A stretch of 62,790 nucleotides of DNA. It comes from Alphaproteobacteria bacterium (GTDB taxonomy: Bacteria > Pseudomonadota > Alphaproteobacteria > JABAAW01). Shown here piece after piece: positions 6,508-49,436 of the stretch (its first letter is position 1; each line of letters starts with the position of its first letter). The translations under genes were made by a program, and so were the position numbers. Location of the stretch: the NCBI GenBank assembly GCA_014237925.1, contig JABACB010000002.1, positions 62,028 through 124,817 of the forward strand, in the 5' to 3' direction. The notes under the pieces were generated by a model. It searched no databases, was not told the origin of the DNA, and worked only from the letters and a program-made list of their open reading frames with translations.

Positions 6508-7068
6508 TCAAGGCAGGCAACGCTCGATCCACACATCGTAGATCGGATGATCCATCGCGCTCAAGGAGGGATATTGTGCGTACATCCAGCCTTTAAACAA
6601 GATGCCTTCTTCGCGCTCCGAGATCGACAAGAGTGCGGCGGAATCCTCAAAGTGCGGATGGAGGATGCGCGCGCAAGAAACCAGGCGAATCGAGAGCGTC
6701 TCGAAGGTCAGACTACGCCCTACAGGAGCGCGCAGCTTCTTTGCCTGCCCTGAGCGTTTGTTCAGTCCGATCAGAAATGCGCTCGACGATTCTTTAATGC
6801 GTCGCTCGACATCGAACGACGCTGCGTTGTCTTCGTCGCTTGACTCTTGTCCTGACGCGAGGCGAGGGAGGGTGATGGTAGCGAGGAAGGCAACGAGGAA
6901 GGCAGCGAGAAAGGCAACGAGGAAGACAAAAGGAATCGCGCAAGGAATCGCTATACCATTCCCTTGAGCGAGCGTGCGTTCTCTTCCCGCCTGTCTGTTG
7001 GGTTGTCTTTTGCGCGAAGTTTGTCTGCGTTGTGCAGGCAGTCTTTGTTGCGCGCGCGGAAGCGTCAT
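6508..7068 (-). CDS. DUF2155-family exported protein (true start probably downstream of 7068)
   Basis: LFKGWMYAQYPSLSAMDHPIYDVWIERC C-terminus; usual position after mlaD. Confidence 0.8.
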   Translation of the reverse strand: MTLPRAQQRLPAQRRQTSRKRQPNRQAGRERTLAQGNGIAIPCAIPFVFLVAFLAAFLVAFLATITLPRLASGQESSDEDNAASFDVERRIKESSSAFLIGLNKRSGQAKKLRAPVGRSLTFETLSIRLVSCARILHPHFEDSAALLSISEREEGILFKGWMYAQYPSLSAMDHPIYDVWIERCLP

Positions 7069-7511
7069 CGCGCTTGCTCGCCTACGACGAAGACGGCGCG
7101 TTCCAAAATTTCTTCGAAGGTGAGTTCGCTTCGCGTGGAGACGACGCGGTCGCCGCTTTGCAGGGCGGTCGCCTCTTTGCCTGGAATCACGCTGAGGTAG
7201 GCTTCGCCCAGCAGCAGGGGGCTTTGTGCGACCAGCGTGCTGTCGAAGGGCAGGCGCAGCGAGTCTTTGAGGGTGAGGGTGACGACAGCCTCGAAGACGA
7301 TCGGGTCGATATGGACGCGTACAACCTTTCCGACAACGACGCCGTTCAGGCGCACTTCGCTACCGCGCACGATGCCGCGGCTGGAGGGAAAGTGTGCCGT
7401 GAGGGTTTGGTCGCCTTCGTGCGATTCTTCGCCCAAAGCGTAGAGGAAGAAGCCCGTCGCGCAGGCGAGGGCGACGGTGCCTGCGATCAGTTCAAACCAG
7501 CTGTGTTTCAT
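7065..7511 (-). CDS. mlaD: MlaD/MCE family protein
   Basis: N-terminal TM, GIVRGSEVRLNGVVVGKV, LLGEAYLSVIPG. Confidence 0.9.
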   Translation of the reverse strand: MKHSWFELIAGTVALACATGFFLYALGEESHEGDQTLTAHFPSSRGIVRGSEVRLNGVVVGKVVRVHIDPIVFEAVVTLTLKDSLRLPFDSTLVAQSPLLLGEAYLSVIPGKEATALQSGDRVVSTRSELTFEEILERAVFVVGEQAR

Positions 7512-8053
7512 TGTTCTCTGGCGGGGGTTTTTTGGGGGGAAGCGGCTTTTTGCGAGATGTTGCGTTCTGCGCGTTCGACGATCGTTGTGATCAGTCGGGG
7601 CAGTTCGATGGGTTCGCGCGTAAAGGAGAAGAAGTCGCCTTCTTGCAGGGATTGTTCTTCGCCGCCCGGCAAGATGACGAGTACCATGCTTCCGGAGAGG
7701 TCTTGGGCGCGGATGACGGCGGAGCTGTCAGAAGGAATTTCGAGGCTGTTGTCGACGGCGAGTTGCACGCGTACGTTTAGCGAGGGTTTTTGCAGCGAGA
7801 CTTTCGTGACTTTTCCGATGGCAACCCCTCCGAGGGTTATGGGGTTTCCTGGGCGCAGTCCTTGTATTTTGAGGAAGTCGGCGAACAAAGTAATGGATCG
7901 GTTGGCGGCATCGGTTCTGTCGGCGCGGTAGGAGTGGGCGAGCAGCAGCGCGAAGGCGAGGAGGGTGACGGCTCCGTAGAGGCGGTGTCGGATGCGCTGT
8001 CGTTTTGCAAGCGTGGCGGCTGCGGAGTGTTGCGGGGGGCTTGGGTTTGTCAC
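7508..8053 (-). CDS. Second MlaD/MCE family protein
   Basis: QGLRPGNPITLGGVAIGKV, IPSDSSAVI, ILPGG. Start set at in-frame GTG 8053. Confidence 0.8.
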   Translation of the reverse strand: MTNPSPPQHSAAATLAKRQRIRHRLYGAVTLLAFALLLAHSYRADRTDAANRSITLFADFLKIQGLRPGNPITLGGVAIGKVTKVSLQKPSLNVRVQLAVDNSLEIPSDSSAVIRAQDLSGSMVLVILPGGEEQSLQEGDFFSFTREPIELPRLITTIVERAERNISQKAASPQKTPAREQ

Positions 8054-8102
8054 AAGGCGGAAACAGAGGTTTGCGTTAGGGGCTGGCGTTAGGGGTTTGG
8101 CG

Positions 8103-8456
8103 TTAAGGGGAGGAGGGGGGAGACCAGGCTTGGTAGGGTTTGGGGGGTTGGTGTCTTTTGGGAGAGACGGCTTGGGGGGTTCCCGTGGGATTGGGGTTAT
8201 GGGGTTTTTGCCAGGCGTGTCGGAGGCGGGGGGCAGAGGATTGGTTGGGGGGGGTCTTGGTGGTGTGATGAATCCAGGCGTGCCAGGCGGCGGGGATGGC
8301 GCTGGCATCTTCGTTTTTTTTGTTGTAGACGACCCATCGGCGGGGGTGGCGGGGATTTTTTGGGGATTTTTCTTCAAAGTAGCGGTTGTTCAGAGAGTCG
8401 CGTCCGACGGGGCGACCGTGCAGGAGGGTTTGGAGAAGGATTGCGGCGGTAGGCAT
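8103..8456 (-). CDS. NADH:ubiquinone oxidoreductase subunit NDUFA12 family protein
   Basis: GRDSLNNRYF, RRWVVY, ASAIPAAWHAWIHHT, WQKPHNPNPTGT, YQAWSP. Confidence 0.92.
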   Translation of the reverse strand: MPTAAILLQTLLHGRPVGRDSLNNRYFEEKSPKNPRHPRRWVVYNKKNEDASAIPAAWHAWIHHTTKTPPNQSSAPRLRHAWQKPHNPNPTGTPQAVSPKRHQPPKPYQAWSPPSSP

Positions 8457-8603
8457 GGCGGAGAGTGTAGCAGAGTTTGCTCATAGAACGGGCTTTTTAC
8501 GGACAAAAAGGCGCTATGTCTGTTGCGCGCGCGCGCGATAGCGCTTTCTACGCACGAGTGCCTCGTTCCCGTTTGCGAAATCGGCGAGGAGATTAAAAAA
8601 AAT

Positions 8604-8612
8604 TGTGGATAA
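8604..8612. promoter_or_regulatory. Perfect DnaA box upstream of nrdJ
   Basis: TGTGGATAA, the reverse complement of TTATCCACA, in the divergent nrdJ/NDUFA12 spacer. Confidence 0.6.
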
Positions 8613-8678
8613 GAAAATGAGCCTCCAAAACGAGCTTATACTGCCTCTGGCTACTCACCTCCAACCCTTCCCTCTCCC

Positions 8679-11600
8679 TTGAAAATCCCCCGCCACTACA
8701 CGCGCGCAGGCGAAAGCCCCTACGCCCGCATCCCCTTCCACCGCGTCACCGCCTCTCTCCGCTCCGCCACAGGCGACCTCGTCTTCGAACAACACAAAGT
8801 CGAAGTGCCAAAAAAATGGTCGCAAACCGCAACCGACATCCTCGCGCAAAAATACTTCCGCAGAAAAGGCATCCCGCATTTCCTCAAACGCATCCCAGAG
8901 AAAGACATCCCCCGCTTCGCACAACGCTCCGCCCCAGACACACAAAAACTGCAAACCCTCCCCGACGAACAACGATACACAGGAGAAACGAGCGCCAAAC
9001 AAGTCTTCTCCCGCCTCGCCGGAACCTGGACATATTGGGGAGCGCGCAACGGATACTTCGATTCCGACGAAGACGCTCAAGCTTTCTGCGACGAGATGCA
9101 ATTCATGCTGGCTTGTCAGATCGCCTCGCCTAACTCGCCGCAATGGTTCAATACAGGGCTATTCTGGGCATACGGCATCGAAGGACCGCCGCAAGGACAC
9201 TGGTACATCGACGAACAGACGAAAACCCCCGCCCTCGCTCAAACAGCCTACGAACGCCCGCAACCCCACGCCTGCTTCATCCAGTCGGTCAAAGACGACC
9301 TTGTCGGCGAAAGCGGCATCATGGATCTGTGGGTGCGCGAAGCGCGGCTTTTCAAGTACGGATCGGGAACAGGTAGCAACTTCTCCGATCTGCGCGGCGA
9401 AAACGAACCCTTGTCTGGCGGCGGATACTCGTCAGGACTCATGTCGTTTCTCAAGATCGGCGACCGCGCCGCAGGTGCGATCAAATCGGGCGGAACAACC
9501 CGCCGCGCCGCCAAGATGGTCGTCGTCGATATCGATCACCCCGACATCGAAGAGTTCATCGATTGGAAAGTACAAGAAGAACAAAAAGTCGCCTCGCTCG
9601 TCGTCGGAGCTCAACGTTGCCAGCAACACCTCGACAATGTGCTGGACGCAGCGCACAGCGGCGACATCCCGAAAAAACAACGGCACTTTGAAGCAACGAA
9701 CCCCCTGCTCGCCACAGCTCTTTCGGCTGCCCGCAAAGACCGCGTTCCCGAATCGATCCTCGTCAAAGTCCTGCAGAAAGCCCGCCAAGGCGAACGCCGC
9801 ATTCCCTTCTCAACCTTCGATACAGACTGGCAGGGCAACGCCTATCTCACCGTCTCGGGACAAAACGCCAACAACAGCGTTCGCGTGAGCGAACGCTTCC
9901 TCCAAGCCGTCGAGAACGACAAACCCTGGCAGCTGACCCGACGCACCGACGGCAAAACACACAAAACCCTCGCCGCACGAACGCTGTGGAAAAAAATCGC
10001 CGACGCCGCTTGGGCAAGCGCAGACCCAGGCATCCAGTTCGATACCACCATCAACGAATGGCACACCTGCCCGAACTCAGGACGCATCAACGCATCCAAT
10101 CCTTGCTCCGAATACATGTTTCTCGACGATACGGCTTGCAACCTCGCCTCCCTCAACCTCTTGAAATTCTGCACCGACAAAGGATTCCTCACCGATGCCT
10201 TCGCACACGCAACACGCCTGTGGACATGCACGCTGGAAATATCGGTCGCCATGGCGCAGTTCCCCTCGCAAGCCATCGCACGCAACTCCTACGACTTTCG
10301 AACGCTCGGACTCGGATTCGCCAACTTGGGCGGAGCTCTCATGAGCTTCGGCGTTCCCTACGACAGCACCGAAGGCAGAAGCTTTTGCGCCGCCGTCAGC
10401 TCGCTCATGAGCGGAACAGCCTACGAGACAAGCGCAGAAATGGCGCGCGAACTCGGCGTTTTTGCGCGATTCGAAGAAAACAGAGAGCCCATGCTGCGCG
10501 TCATGCGAAACCACCGCCGCGCCGCGCACGGAGAGAAACAAGGCTACGAAGGGTTGAGCCGTCCTCCCGTCGCTTTCGAAAGCTTATCGTGCCGCGACAA
10601 CGTGCTCGCCGCCGCTGCGCAAAAAGTTTGGGATCGCGTTCTCGAGAAAGGCGAGCAGCACGGTTTTCGCAACGCCCAAGTCAGCGTGATCGCACCGACA
10701 GGCACGATCGGTATCGTCATGGATTGTGCAACAACGGGAATCGAACCCGATTTCGCGCTCGTCAAAATGAAAAAACTCGCCGGCGGAGGAACGCTCAAGA
10801 TCGTCAATCCCACCCTCTCCGCAGCTCTGCAATCGCTCGGATACGACGAAGAAAGCACGCGCGCCATCGAACAAGCCGTTGCAGGCAGCGGCAAGCTCTC
10901 TTCGAACGAAAAAGGCGTGTCGCCAACAAAACCGTCGCGCGCAAAACCGTCGCGCGCAAAGCTGTCGCAGGAAAAACTGGAGCATGCAGGGCTTTCGAAA
11001 GAAGCCGTCAAAGCCGTCGAGCAAGCCTTGAAAAACGCCTTCCACATTCGCAACGCCTTCACGCCGCACACGCTGGGCGCGAAAGACTTCCAACGCCTTG
11101 TGGCGCGCAACGGCGATGTACTGGCGGCGCTCGGGCTTGACGCGCAAGAGATCGCGGACGCCAACACCGAGATTTGCGGAAGGCTCACCGTCGAAGGAGC
11201 GCCCTTGCTGAAAGACGAACATCTCGCCGTCTTCGACTGCGCAACGCCCTGCGGCGTCGAAGGGAAACGCAGCCTCTCCTGCGAAAGCCACCTTCGCATG
11301 ATGGCAGCAGCCCAACCCTTTGTATCGGGCGCTATCTCGAAGACCGTCAACATGCCGTACCACGCCACGCTCGAAGACTGCCAACACGCTTTCGAAACCT
11401 CGTGGAAGCTGGGGCTCAAAGCCAACGCGCTCTACCGCGACGGCTCGAAGCTTTCGCAGCCCATGACAACTTCTTCGCTCGGCGAAAGGGAAGCAGAGCC
11501 CGTAGCCGAGACGCAGGCGCAGATCCACAACCTCGCCGAGAAGCTCGCGCTCAACCTCTTCGAGCGTTACAAGAGGGCGCTGGAGGAAGAGCGGCAAGGA

Positions 11601-12338
11601 AGCAAAACGCCGCCGCGTGCACGCGGCGCACGCGATCGTCTGCCCGCGCGTCGCAAGAGCTACACGCAGAAAGCCGTCGTCGGAGATCACAAGGTCTATC
11701 TGCACACGGGCGAATACGAGGACGGATCGCTGGGAGAAATCTTCATCGACATGCACAAGGAAGGTGCCGCCTTTCGCTCTATGATGAACAACTTCGCCAT
11801 CGCCGTTTCTATCGGCTTGCAGTACGGTGTGCCGCTGCGGGAGTTCGTCGACGCCTTCACCTTCACGCGCTTCGAGCCAAGCGGCATCGTGCGCGAGAAC
11901 GCTTCGATCCGCCACGCCACCTCCATCCTCGACTACATCTTCCGCGAGCTCGCCATCAGCTACTTGGGACGCGACGACTTGGGACACATCTTGCTGCCGG
12001 ACGGCGACTTCACAGGACTCGGCAAGGGCAAGGACGAGGGACGTCTCAGCGAGGAGACAAGGGCAGCCATCGACCACCTGACCAAACTCACCAGCAGCGG
12101 CTATGTACGCCGCGAACTCACGGCACGACGCAATGGAAACGGTAATGGTAATGGCAACGGCAACGGTAATGGCAATGGCAGTGGTGAGGGCAACAGCGCA
12201 GAGGGCGTGATGTTGCAGGCAAAAACGATGGACGAAGGAATCGGCGATTCCTGCGACTACTGCGGGCATATCACCCTTGTGCGTAGCGGCTCATGCTACG
12301 CTTGCACAACCTGCGGGCAGACGACGGGCTGCAGCTAG
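8679..12338 (+). CDS. nrdJ: Class II (adenosylcobalamin-dependent) ribonucleotide reductase
   Basis: [42 protein letters not shown] and a C-terminal CxxC..CxxC-GCS. TTG start. Confidence 0.97.
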
Positions 12339-43102: not shown

Positions 43103-43819
43103 ATGCAAGGATGGTTTTACGAAAAGGGGGGGAAGTCGCAGCTGGTGATCGCAACGGGCAACCGAGGAAAATTTGTCGAGATCGCAGACTTGCTGAAGCC
43201 CTTTGTTTCCGACATCCGCCCTTGGAACGCGTTCGGCGTAGCGAAGGTGGAGGAGACGGGCGCAACCTACGCCGAGAACGCTCTGATCAAAGCGCGTGCT
43301 GCCTTCCAGCGTAGCGGACGGGCAAGGGGATTTGCCACTCTTGCCGACGATTCGGGGTTCGAGGTCGAAGCGCTGGACGGGAAACCAGGCTTGCTTTCGG
43401 CAAGATGGGCGGAGGGGCAAGATCAGGAGCAGGAGCAGGAGCAGGATCAGGAGCAGGAGCAGGGGGGGAATAATGGCACGCGCGACTTTGCGCGTGCTAT
43501 CGAGCGCGTTCGATGTGAGATGCTAGCGCGCTCGTATAAAGAATCGTCTGCACGGTTCGTTTGTGCGCTTGCGCTTGTGCGCAGCGACGGTGCGGAGCGT
43601 GTTGTCGAGGGCGAGGTGCAGGGAAGGGTTGTTTTTCCACCGCGCGGCGGGCGGGGATTTGGCTATGACCCTATTTTCGTGCCTTTCGTTACGGGGGACG
43701 ACCGAACTTTCGGCGAGATGGAGCGCGAAGAGAAGCAATGTATTAGTCATCGTGCGCAGGCTTTTCGTCGTTTGGGCGAAGATTGTTTTGCGCAAGAGAT
43801 CCGTCAGGAGATTGGCTAA
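43103..43819 (+). CDS. rdgB: Non-canonical purine NTP pyrophosphatase with a (QE)n insert
   Basis: ATGNRGK, ENALIKA, ADDSG, GFGYDP, SHRAQA. Confidence 0.96.
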   Translation: MQGWFYEKGGKSQLVIATGNRGKFVEIADLLKPFVSDIRPWNAFGVAKVEETGATYAENALIKARAAFQRSGRARGFATLADDSGFEVEALDGKPGLLSARWAEGQDQEQEQEQDQEQEQGGNNGTRDFARAIERVRCEMLARSYKESSARFVCALALVRSDGAERVVEGEVQGRVVFPPRGGRGFGYDPIFVPFVTGDDRTFGEMEREEKQCISHRAQAFRRLGEDCFAQEIRQEIG

Positions 43820-44003
43820 AAAATCTGCCGAAAGATTTGCCGAAAACCACGCGCTCGCTACGGGATTTTGCGCGAGGAAACTTCCCGCATCCCCCCGCAC
43901 TCTCCATGCGTGCGCGACAACCTCTTTCCGTCCTTAACAATCCCTTTGCTTGTTCGCAGTCTCTGTTTTCGCAAACCCATACGCAGCTCCCCAAAGCAAA
44001 ACG

Positions 44004-45257
44004 ATGCCTACTTCTTCTTCCACCTGCGCGCGCGACCTTTCGCTCTACATCCACTTCCCCTTCTGCGAACGGAAATGCCCCTATTGCGACTTCAACTCGC
44101 ACGAACGCACCACCATTCCCGAAGACGCCTATGTCGACGCTGTCTTGTGGCGTTTGCAAAACCTCAGCCGCGACCGAACGATACAAAGCGGTAAGTGCCT
44201 TGTGCGCTCGATCTTCTTCGGCGGCGGCACGCCCTCGCTCCTCTCGCCACACGCCGTAGGCAATATCCTCGAAGGCGCGGACAAAAACTTTCGCATCGCG
44301 CAAGACTGCGAAATCACCCTGGAGGCGAATCCTTCCAGCGCGGAAAAAAACAAGTTCGCCGAATGGAAAAAGGCGGGTGTCAATCGTGTCTCGCTCGGCG
44401 TGCAGTCCTTCGACGACAACGCGTTGCGTTTCTTGGGAAGACTCCACGACGCACGACAGGCGCGCGCCGCGCTCGAGCGAGCCGCCAGCCTGTTTGCGCG
44501 CTTCTCCTTCGACCTCATCACAGCTCTGCCACAACAAAGCGACGAGGCGGTCAAGCGCGAGCTCGCTTGCGCCGCACGCTTTGGCGCAGAGCATCTTTGC
44601 GTCTATCAACTGACGATCGAAAAAGCGACCGCCTTCTATCGTGCCGAAGCCAACGGCTTGCTCACCTTGCCCTCGCAGGCGCACGCAGCGCGCCTCTATC
44701 GGCTTGTCGAACAAGAGCTGGCGGCGCAAGGCTACGCCAGCTACGAAATCTCCAGCCACGCCCTCGGCATCGCGTCGCAATCGCGTCACAACCTCGTCTA
44801 TTGGCGGAGCGGCGACTGGCTGGGAATAGGACCAGGGGCGCACGGACGCATCACGCGCTCAAAGCGAAGCATCGCAACTCGAATCGCAACTTTGGAGACG
44901 CGCGACCCCGACCGATGGCTCAAGCAAGCGCAGGCAAGAGACGGACGCATCGAAAAACGCATCCTCCTCTCGCCAGAAGAGGCAGCGCAAGAGCGCGTGA
45001 TGATGGGACTGCGCCTCAAGGAAGGCGTGCCGCTCGCGTTGTTCGACGAAACGAAACAAGCGCGCATCGTCGATCTGTGCAAGGCGGGCTATTGTGAAAA
45101 AACTTTGCTACGACTAAACTTGACGACAGAAGGAAGTTTGCGACTCGATTCGATCGTAGCCTGTCTGCTCGCCGACAGCGCGTCTCTCTACCAAGAGACG
45201 CCGACAGTCGAAAAGGCTGACAGCTTCAAGCCGAACGAACGCGAGAACGAACATTGA
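44004..45257 (+). CDS. hemW: Radical SAM heme chaperone (start 44004 or TTG 43950)
   Basis: YIHFPFCERKCPYCDFNS, FFGGGTPS, NRVSLGVQS, HNLVYW. Confidence 0.95.
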   Translation: MPTSSSTCARDLSLYIHFPFCERKCPYCDFNSHERTTIPEDAYVDAVLWRLQNLSRDRTIQSGKCLVRSIFFGGGTPSLLSPHAVGNILEGADKNFRIAQDCEITLEANPSSAEKNKFAEWKKAGVNRVSLGVQSFDDNALRFLGRLHDARQARAALERAASLFARFSFDLITALPQQSDEAVKRELACAARFGAEHLCVYQLTIEKATAFYRAEANGLLTLPSQAHAARLYRLVEQELAAQGYASYEISSHALGIASQSRHNLVYWRSGDWLGIGPGAHGRITRSKRSIATRIATLETRDPDRWLKQAQARDGRIEKRILLSPEEAAQERVMMGLRLKEGVPLALFDETKQARIVDLCKAGYCEKTLLRLNLTTEGSLRLDSIVACLLADSASLYQETPTVEKADSFKPNERENEH

Positions 45258-49129: not shown

Positions 49130-49436
49130 GCGCGTTTCTGCGAAACGCGCCTGGAGCAGGAAGAGGCTGCGCGCTTGCGCGCAGTTTTTTGCGGGAAAAC
49201 TTCGTCCCCCCTCAGCCCCTCCGCGTGCGCTAGCGCACAGTTTTTTTGCGGGGGAACTTCGTCCCCCCACACCCCCCCGCGTGCGCTAGCGCACGCGACG
49301 CGCGACCGCCTTTTTGTCGCCCAAAGTCCCGTTCCTTGTCTTCTTCCTTGTCCTCCCCCCCGCGCGCGCTGACGCACGCGACGCGCGACCCGCCTTTTTG
49401 TCGCCCAAAGTCCCGTTCCTTGTCTTCTTCCTTGTC
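49130..49436. repeat. Hairpin array: 9-bp stem, 56-bp unit x2, ~83-bp unit x2, 20-bp perfect palindrome
   Basis: GCGCGTTTC-TGC-GAAACGCGC (49130-49150); GGGGGA-ACTTCG-TCCCCC; CGCGTGCGCTAGCGCACGCG (49278-49297). Confidence 0.92.

Follow-up and report, generated by a model that had tools for sequence, protein, structure and literature searches.

Results and Discussion

The abrupt change in strand composition at about 8.55 kb of the window, the whole stretch of 62,790 nucleotides analysed here, was found to be one instance of a genus-wide class of such flips, roughly a hundred per genome in these small alphaproteobacteria. From comparison of the sequences it is probably a footprint of mutation with a composite palindromic repeat at its centre, either as a copy or as a decayed remnant; such a footprint would result if the strand with its 5' end at the element were removed and resynthesised again and again. 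The strand with its 3' end facing the element gained C>T, A>G and C>G changes over about 2 kb on either side, and the reciprocal changes, which are errors or lesions of the complement, were suppressed on it. The polarity was independent of gene orientation, and the footprint was specific to this composite palindromic repeat family, ordinary hairpins being without it.

The source organism is uncultured, and its genome (G000) is a fragmented 1.97-Mb MAG of 409 contigs. The main congeners were G003, a closed single-contig genome, and G004, of which only 825 kb entered the analysis; the gene calls are those of an ad hoc ORF caller. The keto skew, G+T against C+A, was scanned for jumps over the whole G000 genome, and each jump was scored as D with 400-bp arms and a 50-bp gap (66,581 positions, genome-wide SD 0.126).

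The Flip at 8.55 kb

The flip is real, and the base counts quoted for it in the preliminary description of this DNA were exact (8161-8220: G29 C8 A6 T17; 8701-8760: G12 C32 A8 T8; 8941-9000: G10 C21 A26 T3). In 300-bp windows the GC skew went from +0.57 (7951-8250) to -0.38 (8701-9000), and the AT skew changed in the opposite sense, from -0.37 to +0.44. The jump had D = -0.80, the fourth strongest of all positions scanned in G000. Decay on both sides had been described; it was clean on the left, where the baseline was reached by about 1.5-2 kb, and slower and non-monotonic on the right, where the skew slackened at 9.15-9.6 kb before a second lobe extending to about 10.35 kb. The total reach was 1.5-2.7 kb. 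It had been considered that the skew might vanish at 4-fold sites, that the site might be a scaffold junction or that a 5' codon ramp might be at work. None of these applied: around the flip the skew was stronger at 4-fold sites than overall, the window contained zero N, so that the flip is not a scaffold join, and the codon ramp is rejected below. The features of the window that bear on the flip were as follows.

6508..7068, - strand: DUF2155 gene (Pfam PF09923, E = 1.1e-22), last gene of the leftward operon, at the outer edge of the left lobe
7065..7511, - strand: MlaD-family gene 2 (Pfam PF02470, E = 5.4e-15), within the left lobe
7508..8053, - strand: MlaD-family gene 1 (Pfam PF02470, E = 2.3e-13 on the longer ORF 7508-8377), within the left lobe
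8068..8109: tandem repeat in the NDUFA12/MlaD spacer, unit 13-14 nt, about 3 copies (Tandem Repeats Finder)
8103..8456, - strand: NDUFA12-like gene (Pfam PF05071, E = 2.4e-24), first gene of the leftward operon
8457..8678: divergent spacer with the flip point, cumulative keto-skew maximum at about 8594 (refined change point C222:70621)
8511..8560: remnant of the repeat element, with the 7-bp inverted repeat GCGCTAT (8511-8517)/ATAGCGC (8538-8544)
8595..8616, + strand: conserved A-run, then TTGTGGATAA, upstream of nrdJ, in the upstream spacers of 4/4 genus members
8679..12338, + strand: nrdJ, class II (B12-dependent) ribonucleotide reductase, TTG start (Pfam PF08471, PF02867, PF12637)
43350..44150: third flip, of the same polarity as at 8.55 kb, between two co-oriented genes (D = -0.35 at 43750)
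49170..49290: full copy of the repeat element (regex hit and sequence), hairpin GGGGGAACTTCGTCCCCCC at 49250

The GTG start of MlaD-family gene 1 at 8053 is a predicted one, picked from the translation past the NDUFA12 stop. On the + strand, the GC4 skew was +0.06, about baseline, in the DUF2155 gene, +0.41 in MlaD-family gene 2 (AT4 skew -0.29), +0.52 in MlaD-family gene 1 (AT4 skew -0.54) and +0.89 in the NDUFA12-like gene, the strongest part of the left lobe (4-fold sites G50 C3 A8 T6). The right lobe was strong over about 8679-10350 of nrdJ, consecutive pieces of which showed + strand GC4 skews of -0.56, -0.34, -0.53, -0.29 and -0.28. In agreement with the codon bias reported before, the first 100 codons of nrdJ had a GC4 skew of -0.71 and K/E/Q codons ending in A rather than G at 20:1, and past codon 900 the G-ending ones were preferred instead; the A-ending preference was still high to about 11400, beyond the strong lobe. 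The footprint in general was strong enough to shift amino-acid composition. As had been stated, no AGGAGG-like Shine-Dalgarno stretch was seen upstream of the NDUFA12 or nrdJ start, which has no bearing on the explanation.

The divergent spacer gave no sigma-70-like promoter or terminator match, and its fold was no more stable than those of shuffles (z = -0.12). The element remnant carries a (GC)n run (8525-8537) inside the inverted repeat, followed by half a CTACGCAC module. The spacer matched the repeated modules of G003 at 8530-8560 only (about 30 nt, 13-16 hits), as compared with a full composite element, including G-run/C-run hairpins, in the nrdJ-upstream spacers of both G003 and G004. 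The A-run/TTGTGGATAA box is probably a regulatory box belonging to nrdJ and not a part of the repeat. The flip at the nrdJ 5' end was common to all four genus members examined, the closed genome included, and neither the flip nor the 5' bias of nrdJ was present in seven other alphaproteobacteria. In addition, G003 and G004 carry a second element, with its own flip, just downstream of nrdJ; G000 is without it, and there the downstream gene is not C/A-rich.

A Genus-Wide Class of Flips

The full element copy at 49170..49290 showed a flip of its own, weaker than that at 8.55 kb and of the same polarity (keto skew +0.107 to its left, -0.168 to its right), and no up-jump of at least 0.3 was detected across the whole window. 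At a threshold of 0.5, down-jumps (G/T-rich left, C/A-rich right) outnumbered up-jumps by 29 to 3 in G000, 94 to 8 in the closed G003 and 40 to 1 in G004 (binomial p 3e-6 to 9e-20). At a threshold of 0.4 there were 47 down-jumps in G000 and 173 in G003. The gene junctions bearing flips were convergent, tandem and divergent, the majority of flips lying where genes converge, with a G/T-rich coding strand on either side. The background replication skew was only about 0.02. A literature search found no published description of such a footprint in bacteria.

The + strand thus passes from G-rich to C-rich as at a replication terminus or dif-type GC-skew switch. A terminus, however, occurs once per replicon with skew across the whole replichore, and about 47-175 sites were counted here per genome of about 2 Mb, each fading within about 2 kb. 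The assignment to a terminus was therefore rejected, and the terminus-like fork convergence suggested in the preliminary description does not fit a count of some 50 to 175 in each 2-Mb genome. The idea of a single local site had likewise to be given up for a genus-wide class tied to one composite palindromic repeat family, of which the congeners hold a full copy in the same spacer.

The Repeat Element and Its Flanks

In G003, 175 hairpin cores were located by a G-run/loop/C-run hairpin, without using skew. They fall into at least four loop subfamilies, each in both orientations, and the element consists of a conserved core of about 100 bp with variable neighbouring palindromic modules in a mosaic. 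Elements were outside called ORFs in 158/175 cases and between convergent genes in 80/175, convergent junctions being 17% of all junctions. The element had no Rfam match.

With the 175 hairpins as centres, a mirror GC-skew profile of +0.31/-0.30 was obtained, gone by about 2.2 kb, and GC content dipped by about 4 points near the elements. At 4-fold sites the skew of the + strand reached values between +0.58 and +0.68 left of the element and between -0.42 and -0.67 right of it, with the same sign on each side for genes of the + and - strands. The palindrome copies of G000, defined by BLAST with queries from 3/25 loci that had themselves been picked at flip sites, gave D < 0 in 24/25 (mean -0.31). 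D was about 0 at terminator-like hairpins that had no element within 3 kb. The effect was about 1.5-2x larger (log-odds) in genes pointing toward the element, so transcription modulates the footprint. In addition, the flank on the inferred fork-arrival side reached further at 1200-1700 bp (0.109 versus -0.056, and on the other replichore 0.046 versus -0.122; p = 2e-4), the replichores being assigned from a weak cumulative skew.

Polarised Substitutions

Ancestral states were obtained by three-taxon parsimony with an 18%-divergent outgroup. On the G003 branch, at 4-fold sites 150-600 bp to the left of the element, C>T was 0.129 versus 0.026 for G>A, and A>G was 0.103 versus 0.014 for T>C; the bias to the right of the element mirrored that on the left, and the ratios were back to about 1 beyond 2-3 kb (Fisher p 1e-8 to 4e-45). 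The changes were overwhelmingly synonymous. Relative to the rate far from elements, the exposed, 3'-facing strand showed C>T at 2.5x, A>G at 1.7x and C>G at 2x, and the reciprocal T>C at 0.4x, G>C at 0.3x and G>A at 0.8x. C>T and A>G thus marked the + strand left of the element and the - strand right of it, the mutated strand switching at the site as in a resection-type process. No strict deaminase motif such as TpC (APOBEC) was found, C>T being raised 3.1-3.3x after A/T and 2.1x after C/G. Both the geometry proposed earlier, in which the strand with its 3' end facing the site is G/T-rich on each side, and the C>T and A>G changes postulated with it were borne out.

The terminal branch of G004 showed no asymmetry, even around the 43 hairpins of that genome. 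The process was therefore active on some lineages only, on along the G003 branch and off along its sister G004; the skew can be a fossil, and the element alone is not sufficient. In the window the skew may be partly inherited rather than ongoing, and since the element there has decayed to a remnant of about 30 nt, the footprint may be largely inherited from the genus ancestor.

Origin of the Footprint

Strands left single-stranded gain C→T and A→G and become G/T-rich, as do the mitochondrial H strand and the lagging-strand template. In the reading that we consider probable, the strand with its 5' end at the element would undergo repeated cycles of removal and of new synthesis directed away from the element, and the 3'-facing strand would thereby be single-stranded, prone to deamination and always the template. 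Such cycles could start from a double-strand break or a nick made at the element, with an AddAB-type enzyme perhaps carrying out the 5'→3' resection; alternatively, DNA synthesis could be blocked there, which would leave a gap of about Okazaki-fragment length. Among the candidate enzymes sought, an AddA-like gene, MutS, MutL and two UDG-family genes were present; SbcD and the TnpB, rve and DDE_Tnp_1 transposase families were absent, and no candidate for cutting the element came out of these searches. The spacer of the window has neither an intact element nor a stable fold and yet holds one of the strongest flips, which counts against this reading.

The break with resection put forward in the preliminary description fits the geometry, and it is one of several mechanisms that would do so; SbcD and the transposase families tested were absent. 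Single-strand damage agrees with the raised C>T and A>G, but the reciprocal changes at 0.3-0.8x are not predicted by simple added damage from rare breaks. For a 2-3-fold reciprocal suppression the strand would have to be replaced in a sizeable fraction of all generations, which is a poor fit with rare breaks and suggests a replication-coupled or repair-directed process.

A replication-coupled origin is the first alternative, although we regard it as rather unlikely. Here synthesis arriving from either side would be halted in each round by the element itself or by a protein that binds it, the 3'-facing template would stay single-stranded until the gap was filled, and the gap-filling strand would be proofread unusually well as a strand end persists nearby. 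The geometry is identical to that of recurrent strand removal and resynthesis. Okazaki fragments in bacteria are near 2 kb in length, close to the decay of about 2 kb. Because the block would recur every cycle, it could account for the lowered reciprocal changes as well as for the raised ones, which would come from lesions in the exposed template. The longer flank on the inferred fork-arrival side also points this way, but only as far as the replichore assignment holds. Ordinary hairpins with 11-17-bp stems were without a footprint, which means that a block by structure would not suffice by itself, and G004, with its elements and no ongoing asymmetry, implies that a trans-acting factor would be needed.

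Misdirected mismatch repair is less probable still. If the 5'-ended strand were nicked at the element time after time, MutS/MutL excision would be steered to that strand over up to 1-2 kb, so that errors of synthesis on the 3'-facing strand were fixed and those on the nicked strand better removed. C>T, A>G and C>G (G.T, T.G and G.G mispairs), all up about 2x, are the error types expected if the 3'-facing strand is nascent, and reciprocals lowered to 0.3-0.8x are the symmetric redistribution predicted. Both MutS and MutL are encoded, and mismatch-repair excision lengths are known to match a tract of about 1-2 kb, in agreement with that seen here. Against this, no candidate nickase was identified, and the GC dip near the elements and the stronger rise of C>T than of A>G fit deamination at least as well.

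That the elements are not causal, and either insert preferentially at existing flips or arise with them as by-products of inversions or imported DNA under replication skew, is very unlikely. Their enrichment between convergent genes, the G004 elements without ongoing asymmetry and the strong flip of the window with only a remnant would be compatible with it. However, the flanks were actively gaining skew on the G003 branch. Inversions or imported DNA predict that up-jumps should be as frequent as down-jumps, where 94 versus 8 were counted in favour of the latter, and would give no smooth symmetric decay; nor can they occur inside an intact nrdJ. The background replication skew is also tiny.

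Scarcely credible is a transcription- or translation-linked origin, by selection of C/A-rich 5' ends in genes without a Shine-Dalgarno sequence (unstructured mRNA, codon ramp) or by transcription-coupled mutation. Both divergent units at 8.55 kb are C/A-rich on the coding strand at their 5' ends, a weak mean 5' trend exists genome-wide (GC4 skew -0.12 to -0.05), and the larger effect in genes pointing toward the element is of this kind. The junction types of the flips and the 4-fold sign common to genes of either strand nevertheless refute it as the main cause, and the earlier view that the effect acts on the DNA and not via transcription or translation was upheld on the same evidence. Most flips are at convergent ends, of opposite sign relative to transcription, and the polarity does not follow the direction of transcription, which removes transcription-associated strand asymmetry as a class. 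A 5' codon ramp was rejected on the reach of 1.5-2.7 kb instead of tens of codons, the small genome-wide trend and the position of most flips at gene 3' ends. The most skewed genes include the low-expression housekeeping genes for ThiL, RibD and RecN, and nrdJ orthologs outside the genus have no ramp.

An assembly or sequencing artefact (chimeric join, strand-specific consensus error or conversion chemistry) might be suspected from the fragmented MAG and from the piling up of extreme-skew windows at contig ends, but its probability is negligible, as it is refuted by the presence of the nrdJ flip in four independent assemblies, one of them closed, and is at odds with the lack of N, the intact and conserved flanking genes and the overwhelmingly synonymous changes.

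Comparison with Known Systems

Strand-coordinated mutation clusters (kataegis-type showers) flank double-strand breaks where the single-stranded DNA exposed by resection is damaged (Taylor et al. 2013, PMC3628087; Sakofsky et al. 2019, PMC6786661). As in these clusters, the mutated strand switches at the centre, the 3'-ended strand is hit on each side with C>T and C>G, and the reach is of kilobase scale. Unlike them, one-off somatic bursts in yeast or human cells usually caused by APOBEC with a TpC motif, the element footprint is a long-term evolutionary one near equilibrium at about 100 fixed repeat sites of a bacterial genus, with A>G also raised, no strict motif and suppressed reciprocal changes.

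The element resembles the REP/BIME repeats of enterobacteria and pseudomonads in having short modular, hairpin-forming palindromes, mainly intergenic and often after gene ends, in many copies and both orientations. It differs in its unrelated sequence and in a genus without the RAYT (Y1, PF01797) transposase, which had 0 matches in G000, G003 and G004 and was found in six control genomes. No strand-asymmetric flanking footprint was found for REP/BIMEs in the literature searched.

Spo11 meiotic hotspots share the fixed site and the two-sided resection of about 1-2 kb with exposed 3' tails; there the eukaryotic cell makes a programmed break with Spo11 and resects it 5'→3' for about 1 kb in both directions, whereas at the element a topoisomerase-like cut, or any break, is hypothetical.

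The H strand of vertebrate mitochondrial DNA gains more C>T and A>G the longer it is single-stranded. The element footprint resembles this gradient in the same pair of transitions on the exposed strand, in being strongest at silent sites and graded with position, and in altering protein composition. The mitochondrial replicon, with two origins, has one gradient, and the genomes of this genus have many short mirror-image gradients set by repeats.

Strand Composition at the nrdJ 5′ End

The source MAG (G000) comprises 1.97 Mb in 409 contigs with 56% GC, and the window corresponds to C222:62028–124817. The genes around the switch in strand composition (the flip) at about 8.55 kb of the window were identified by Pfam and translation:

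8456..8103, minus strand, NDUFA12-like gene, in the operon left of the spacer
about 8053..7508, minus strand, first MlaD gene
7511..7065, minus strand, second MlaD gene
7068..6508, minus strand, DUF2155 gene
8679..12338, plus strand, nrdJ, class II ribonucleotide reductase, right of the spacer

The base counts given for this region in the preliminary description were exact on recount, and no N bases were found over the whole stretch. The GC skew showed a peak of +0.57 at 7951–8250 followed by −0.38 at 8701–9000, with the AT skew as its mirror image. The skew was not lost at 4-fold sites: on the + strand it was +0.89 for NDUFA12 (G50 C3), +0.52 and +0.41 for the two MlaD genes and +0.06 for DUF2155, and consecutive pieces of nrdJ gave −0.56, −0.34, −0.53, −0.29 and −0.28. 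The reported contrast in codon choice between the two ends of nrdJ was borne out for the K, E and Q codons, with an A-ending to G-ending ratio of 20:1 in the first 100 codons, A being favoured until about codon 900 and G thereafter.

A promoter and terminator scan of the NDUFA12/nrdJ spacer gave no match, and Rfam searches of the window and of the repeat element described below returned tRNAs only, plus one sub-threshold chance match. An A-run followed by TTGTGGATAA precedes nrdJ at window 8595–8616; it is conserved across the four genus members, the other three spacers being those of loci L002–L004. This motif is a candidate regulatory box, for which Rfam gave neither a riboswitch nor any other match.

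A Genome-Wide Class of Flips with One Polarity

The framing of the flip as a single local site or terminus proved too narrow. When G000 was scanned for jumps in keto skew (D; G+T versus C+A, 400-bp arms), down-jumps, with the polarity of the window's flip, outnumbered up-jumps by 47 to 15 at |D| > 0.4, 29 to 3 at > 0.5 and 6 to 0 at > 0.7. In the closed congener G003 (1.90 Mb, one contig) the counts were 94 versus 8 at 0.5 and 38 versus 1 at 0.6. The G/T-left, C/A-right pattern is unchanged by reverse complementation, so that contig orientation can neither create nor hide the polarity. The window's flip (D = −0.80) ranks fourth in G000. The mean over the 47 G000 sites showed a skew of about ±0.3 at the centre, falling to zero by about 1.75–2 kb, and a drop in GC content from 0.575 to 0.52.

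In G000, D < −0.4 was found at 22 of 170 convergent gene pairs, with an up-jump at one, as well as at 7 divergent and 10 tandem pairs. The two coding strands are both G/T-rich at convergent junctions and both C/A-rich at the divergent junction of the window; the polarity therefore belongs to the DNA and not to transcription. At the gene level the 4-fold GC skew of G000 has an SD of 0.29, with genuine conserved genes at both extremes, and the C/A-rich set forms no expression class. Translational selection in highly expressed genes is contradicted by the most C/A-rich genes, which mix ThiL, RibD, RecN and a DNA methylase with GroEL, S6 and RF1, and also by the real genes at the opposite extreme. 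The transcription and translation readings of the flip are thus refuted. Decay of composition from an operon start had a mean effect too small to account for the window's flip, and a gene-by-gene patchwork produced by horizontal transfer or inversions is contradicted by the strong excess of one polarity in G000 and G003.

Extreme-skew windows and G-run hairpins are concentrated at G000 contig ends (e.g., C42, C20, C10, C349, C409, C66:24, C354:1 and C199:21320). Because of this clustering the short-read assembly is taken to break at repeats, and elements and flips are probably undercounted in it.

The Repeat Element at the Flip Centres

Palindromic modules were present at many G000 flip points. 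For one module, D was negative at 24 of 25 copies located by BLAST only (mean −0.31), three of these loci being the queries themselves, taken from flip sites. In G003 the flip points coincide with a composite repeat that has a G-run/loop/C-run hairpin at its core, e.g., GGGGGGATAAATTCCCCCC. About 100 bp of core are conserved, the palindromic neighbours vary, and there are at least four loop subfamilies, each found in both orientations.

A skew-blind search of G003 with a regular expression located 175 G-run...C-run copies; the reverse polarity, C-run...G-run, occurred only twice. In the flanks of the 175 hairpins the GC skew was +0.31 on the left and −0.30 on the right at 400–600 bp and had faded by about 2.2 kb. 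At 4-fold sites the + strand skew near the elements was +0.58 to +0.68 on the left and −0.42 to −0.67 on the right for genes on either strand, the effect being about 1.5–2-fold larger in log-odds for genes pointing toward the element. By junction type, 80 elements were convergent, 62 tandem and 16 divergent, and 30% of G003 lies within 2 kb of an element. The sister of G003, G004, gave a similar picture around its own hairpins (40 down-jumps versus 1 up-jump); the density of hairpins was 92 per Mb in G003 and 54 per Mb in G004.

The footprint is specific to this repeat family. Any stable hairpin as the cause was rejected, since terminator-like hairpins with 11–17-bp stems more than 3 kb from any element gave D of about 0, and the hairpins that do have a footprint are modules of the composite repeat.

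In the window, a full composite element adjoins xerC (49170–49420). Its hairpin is GGGGGAACTTCGTCCCCCC, the modules beside it are duplicated at a spacing of about 120 bp, and the copy shows a weaker flip of its own with the polarity seen elsewhere (+0.107/−0.168).

The nrdJ Locus in Relatives

The flip at the nrdJ 5′ end is common to all four genus members, with a GC skew of +0.45 to +0.60 upstream and −0.30 to −0.48 in the first 300 bp of the gene; over the first 150 codons the GC4 skew is −0.56 to −0.88 and the A-ending fraction 0.79–0.90. A comparable 5′ skew was absent from nrdJ in seven of seven alphaproteobacteria outside the genus. The spacer upstream of nrdJ carries a full composite element in G003 and G004 and none in G000 and the further genus member G002. 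In G000 only window positions 8530–8560 still match the repeated modules, and shuffled sequence folds as well as the spacer does; judged by these matches, the window's spacer holds only a remnant of the element.

A second element with its own flip lies directly downstream of nrdJ in G003 and G004. G000 is without it, and the orthologous downstream gene is not C/A-rich there. The skew is thus tied to the element, since second element and flip occur together in G003 and G004 and are both missing in G000. G000 may once have had a downstream element like that of G003 and G004, of which the G preference at the 3′ end of its nrdJ would be a relic.

Polarised Substitutions

G003, 825 kb of G004 (92% identical to G003) and G000 (82% identical) were aligned over 572,682 sites, and changes were placed on terminal branches by parsimony. 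The rates at 4-fold sites on the G003 branch were mirrored about the element (Fisher p 1e-8 to 4e-45):

Substitutions at 4-fold sites on the G003 branch
Left of element (150–600 bp): C>T 0.129 versus G>A 0.026; A>G 0.103 versus T>C 0.014
Right of element: C>T 0.014 versus G>A 0.140; A>G 0.005 versus T>C 0.077

The ratios shrink with distance and are about 1 past 2–3 kb. Parsimony error from a skewed outgroup would weaken this asymmetry and not produce it. On the strand that has its 3′ end toward the element, C>T occurred at 2.5 times, A>G at 1.7 times and C>G at twice the rate far from elements, and the reciprocal changes were lowered (T>C 0.4, G>C 0.3 and G>A 0.8 times). The effect of neighbouring bases was mild, with no strict motif. 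The geometry proposed in the preliminary description, in which the 3′-facing strand is G/T-rich on each side, was right, and the rise of C>T and A>G that it expected on this strand was found once changes were polarised against orthologs.

A combined rise of C>T and A>G classically marks DNA that has been single-stranded, the mitochondrial H strand being an example, and the C>G rise fits abasic sites left after uracil removal. The complement of the 3′-facing strand is spared, as the reciprocal changes at 0.3–0.8 times the distant rate show. Rare breaks do not predict this sparing, which indicates an event in a large share of generations; it points to replacement of the complement strand in most cycles or to repair directed against it.

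No asymmetry was found on the G004 terminal branch, including at its own 43 hairpins (C>T 0.023 versus G>A 0.020; A>G 0.0106 versus T>C 0.0105). For these sites, the branch of G003 gave C>T 0.045 versus G>A 0.015 and A>G 0.029 versus T>C 0.008. The element alone is therefore insufficient, and the process needs a factor or state differing between the two lineages. The G004 flanks are still strongly skewed despite the symmetric terminal branch, so that skew can persist as a fossil.

Possible Mechanism

Overall, the reading that we favour, with some reserve, is recurrent strand removal from the element, in which the 3′-facing strand would be exposed or used as template. The polarity would follow if the strand with its 5′ end at the element were removed or its synthesis delayed, whatever the means. 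As trigger, the element could be nicked or suffer a two-ended break, with 5′→3′ resection following; synthesis could be blocked from both sides, leaving gaps of about Okazaki-fragment length; or nick-directed mismatch repair could be aimed at the wrong strand. An AddA-like gene, which bears on resection, was found, as were MutS and MutL, which bear on mismatch repair; the symmetric rise and fall of reciprocal changes is a prediction of misdirected mismatch repair.

Fixed priming sites, origins, nick translation and outward transcription would all give the opposite polarity by strand geometry. Hairpin cleavage by SbcCD was rejected because SbcD was not found, and none of the families searched for as cutting enzyme (RAYT, IS200, TnpB, rve and DDE_Tnp_1, Y1/RAYT included) was found. 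The DNA between close hairpin pairs consists of ordinary genes only, which speaks against an autonomous element.

A link to replication is suggested by the flank on the inferred fork-arrival side, which extends further in G003, with ori and ter placed from a weak all-site cumulative skew. Defining the replichores from 4-fold sites away from elements gave no clear signal. Near the inferred terminus of G003, the region 600–900 kb has unusually negative skew: overall skew is −0.08 to −0.14 in 50-kb bins at 750–900 kb, and 4-fold skew far from elements is −0.15 to −0.21 at 600–800 kb.

A bolder and rather doubtful proposal is that the repeat family permanently serves as a trans-activated site at which a strand is removed in most cell generations, the process being turned on and off between sister lineages. 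If so, the trigger would be a nick, break or replication block, each copy would rewrite silent sites and some protein sequence over about 4 kb of core genes, and the repeats would set most of the genome's skew landscape. Disturbed handling of strand ends might then also cause the runaway 11–15-nt tandem duplications of the genus.

Parallels and Implications

The usual explanations for local mutation rate and direction in bacteria are replication strand, transcription and base context. In the present case a strand-specific field of mutation appears to be imposed by a repeat element over about 2 kb on each side and to be strong enough to re-code essential neighbours (nrdJ, NDUFA12, GroEL) and to dominate whole-chromosome skew. 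In a full-text literature search, no description of a strand-asymmetric footprint flanking repeat elements in bacteria came up. Near parallels are the break-associated, strand-coordinated mutation clusters of yeast and human cells (PMC3628087, PMC6786661), the mitochondrial gradient of single-strand time and meiotic hotspots; REP/BIME repeats are a parallel in structure only. New here are the polarised spectrum, the reciprocal suppression, the restriction of the footprint to one repeat family, the on/off difference between G003 and its sister G004 and the remnant-only element of the window.

If the mutation field is real, sequence alone would reveal in which direction and how far a strand is processed at a defined site in bacteria, and ori/ter calls from GC skew, codon-based expression estimates, detection of horizontal transfer and gene callers would be unreliable in such genomes. 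The contrast between G003 and G004 would then offer a direct comparative route to the responsible enzyme or state.

Gene Calls and Tandem Repeats

A codon-usage gene caller with a single model miscalled strongly skewed G000 genes, the first MlaD gene being replaced by two antisense ORFs, and a four-class codon-usage model was required; errors of this kind may also be found in the standard annotation of such genomes. Two in-frame tandem repeats lie in nrdJ, one with a 15-nt unit in 2.8 copies (10927–10968) and the other, close to the C-terminus, an (NG)n run of about 9 copies and period 6/18 (12130–12194). The N-terminal part of the DUF2155 gene carries a 12/24-nt tandem repeat of 4 copies (6880–6929).
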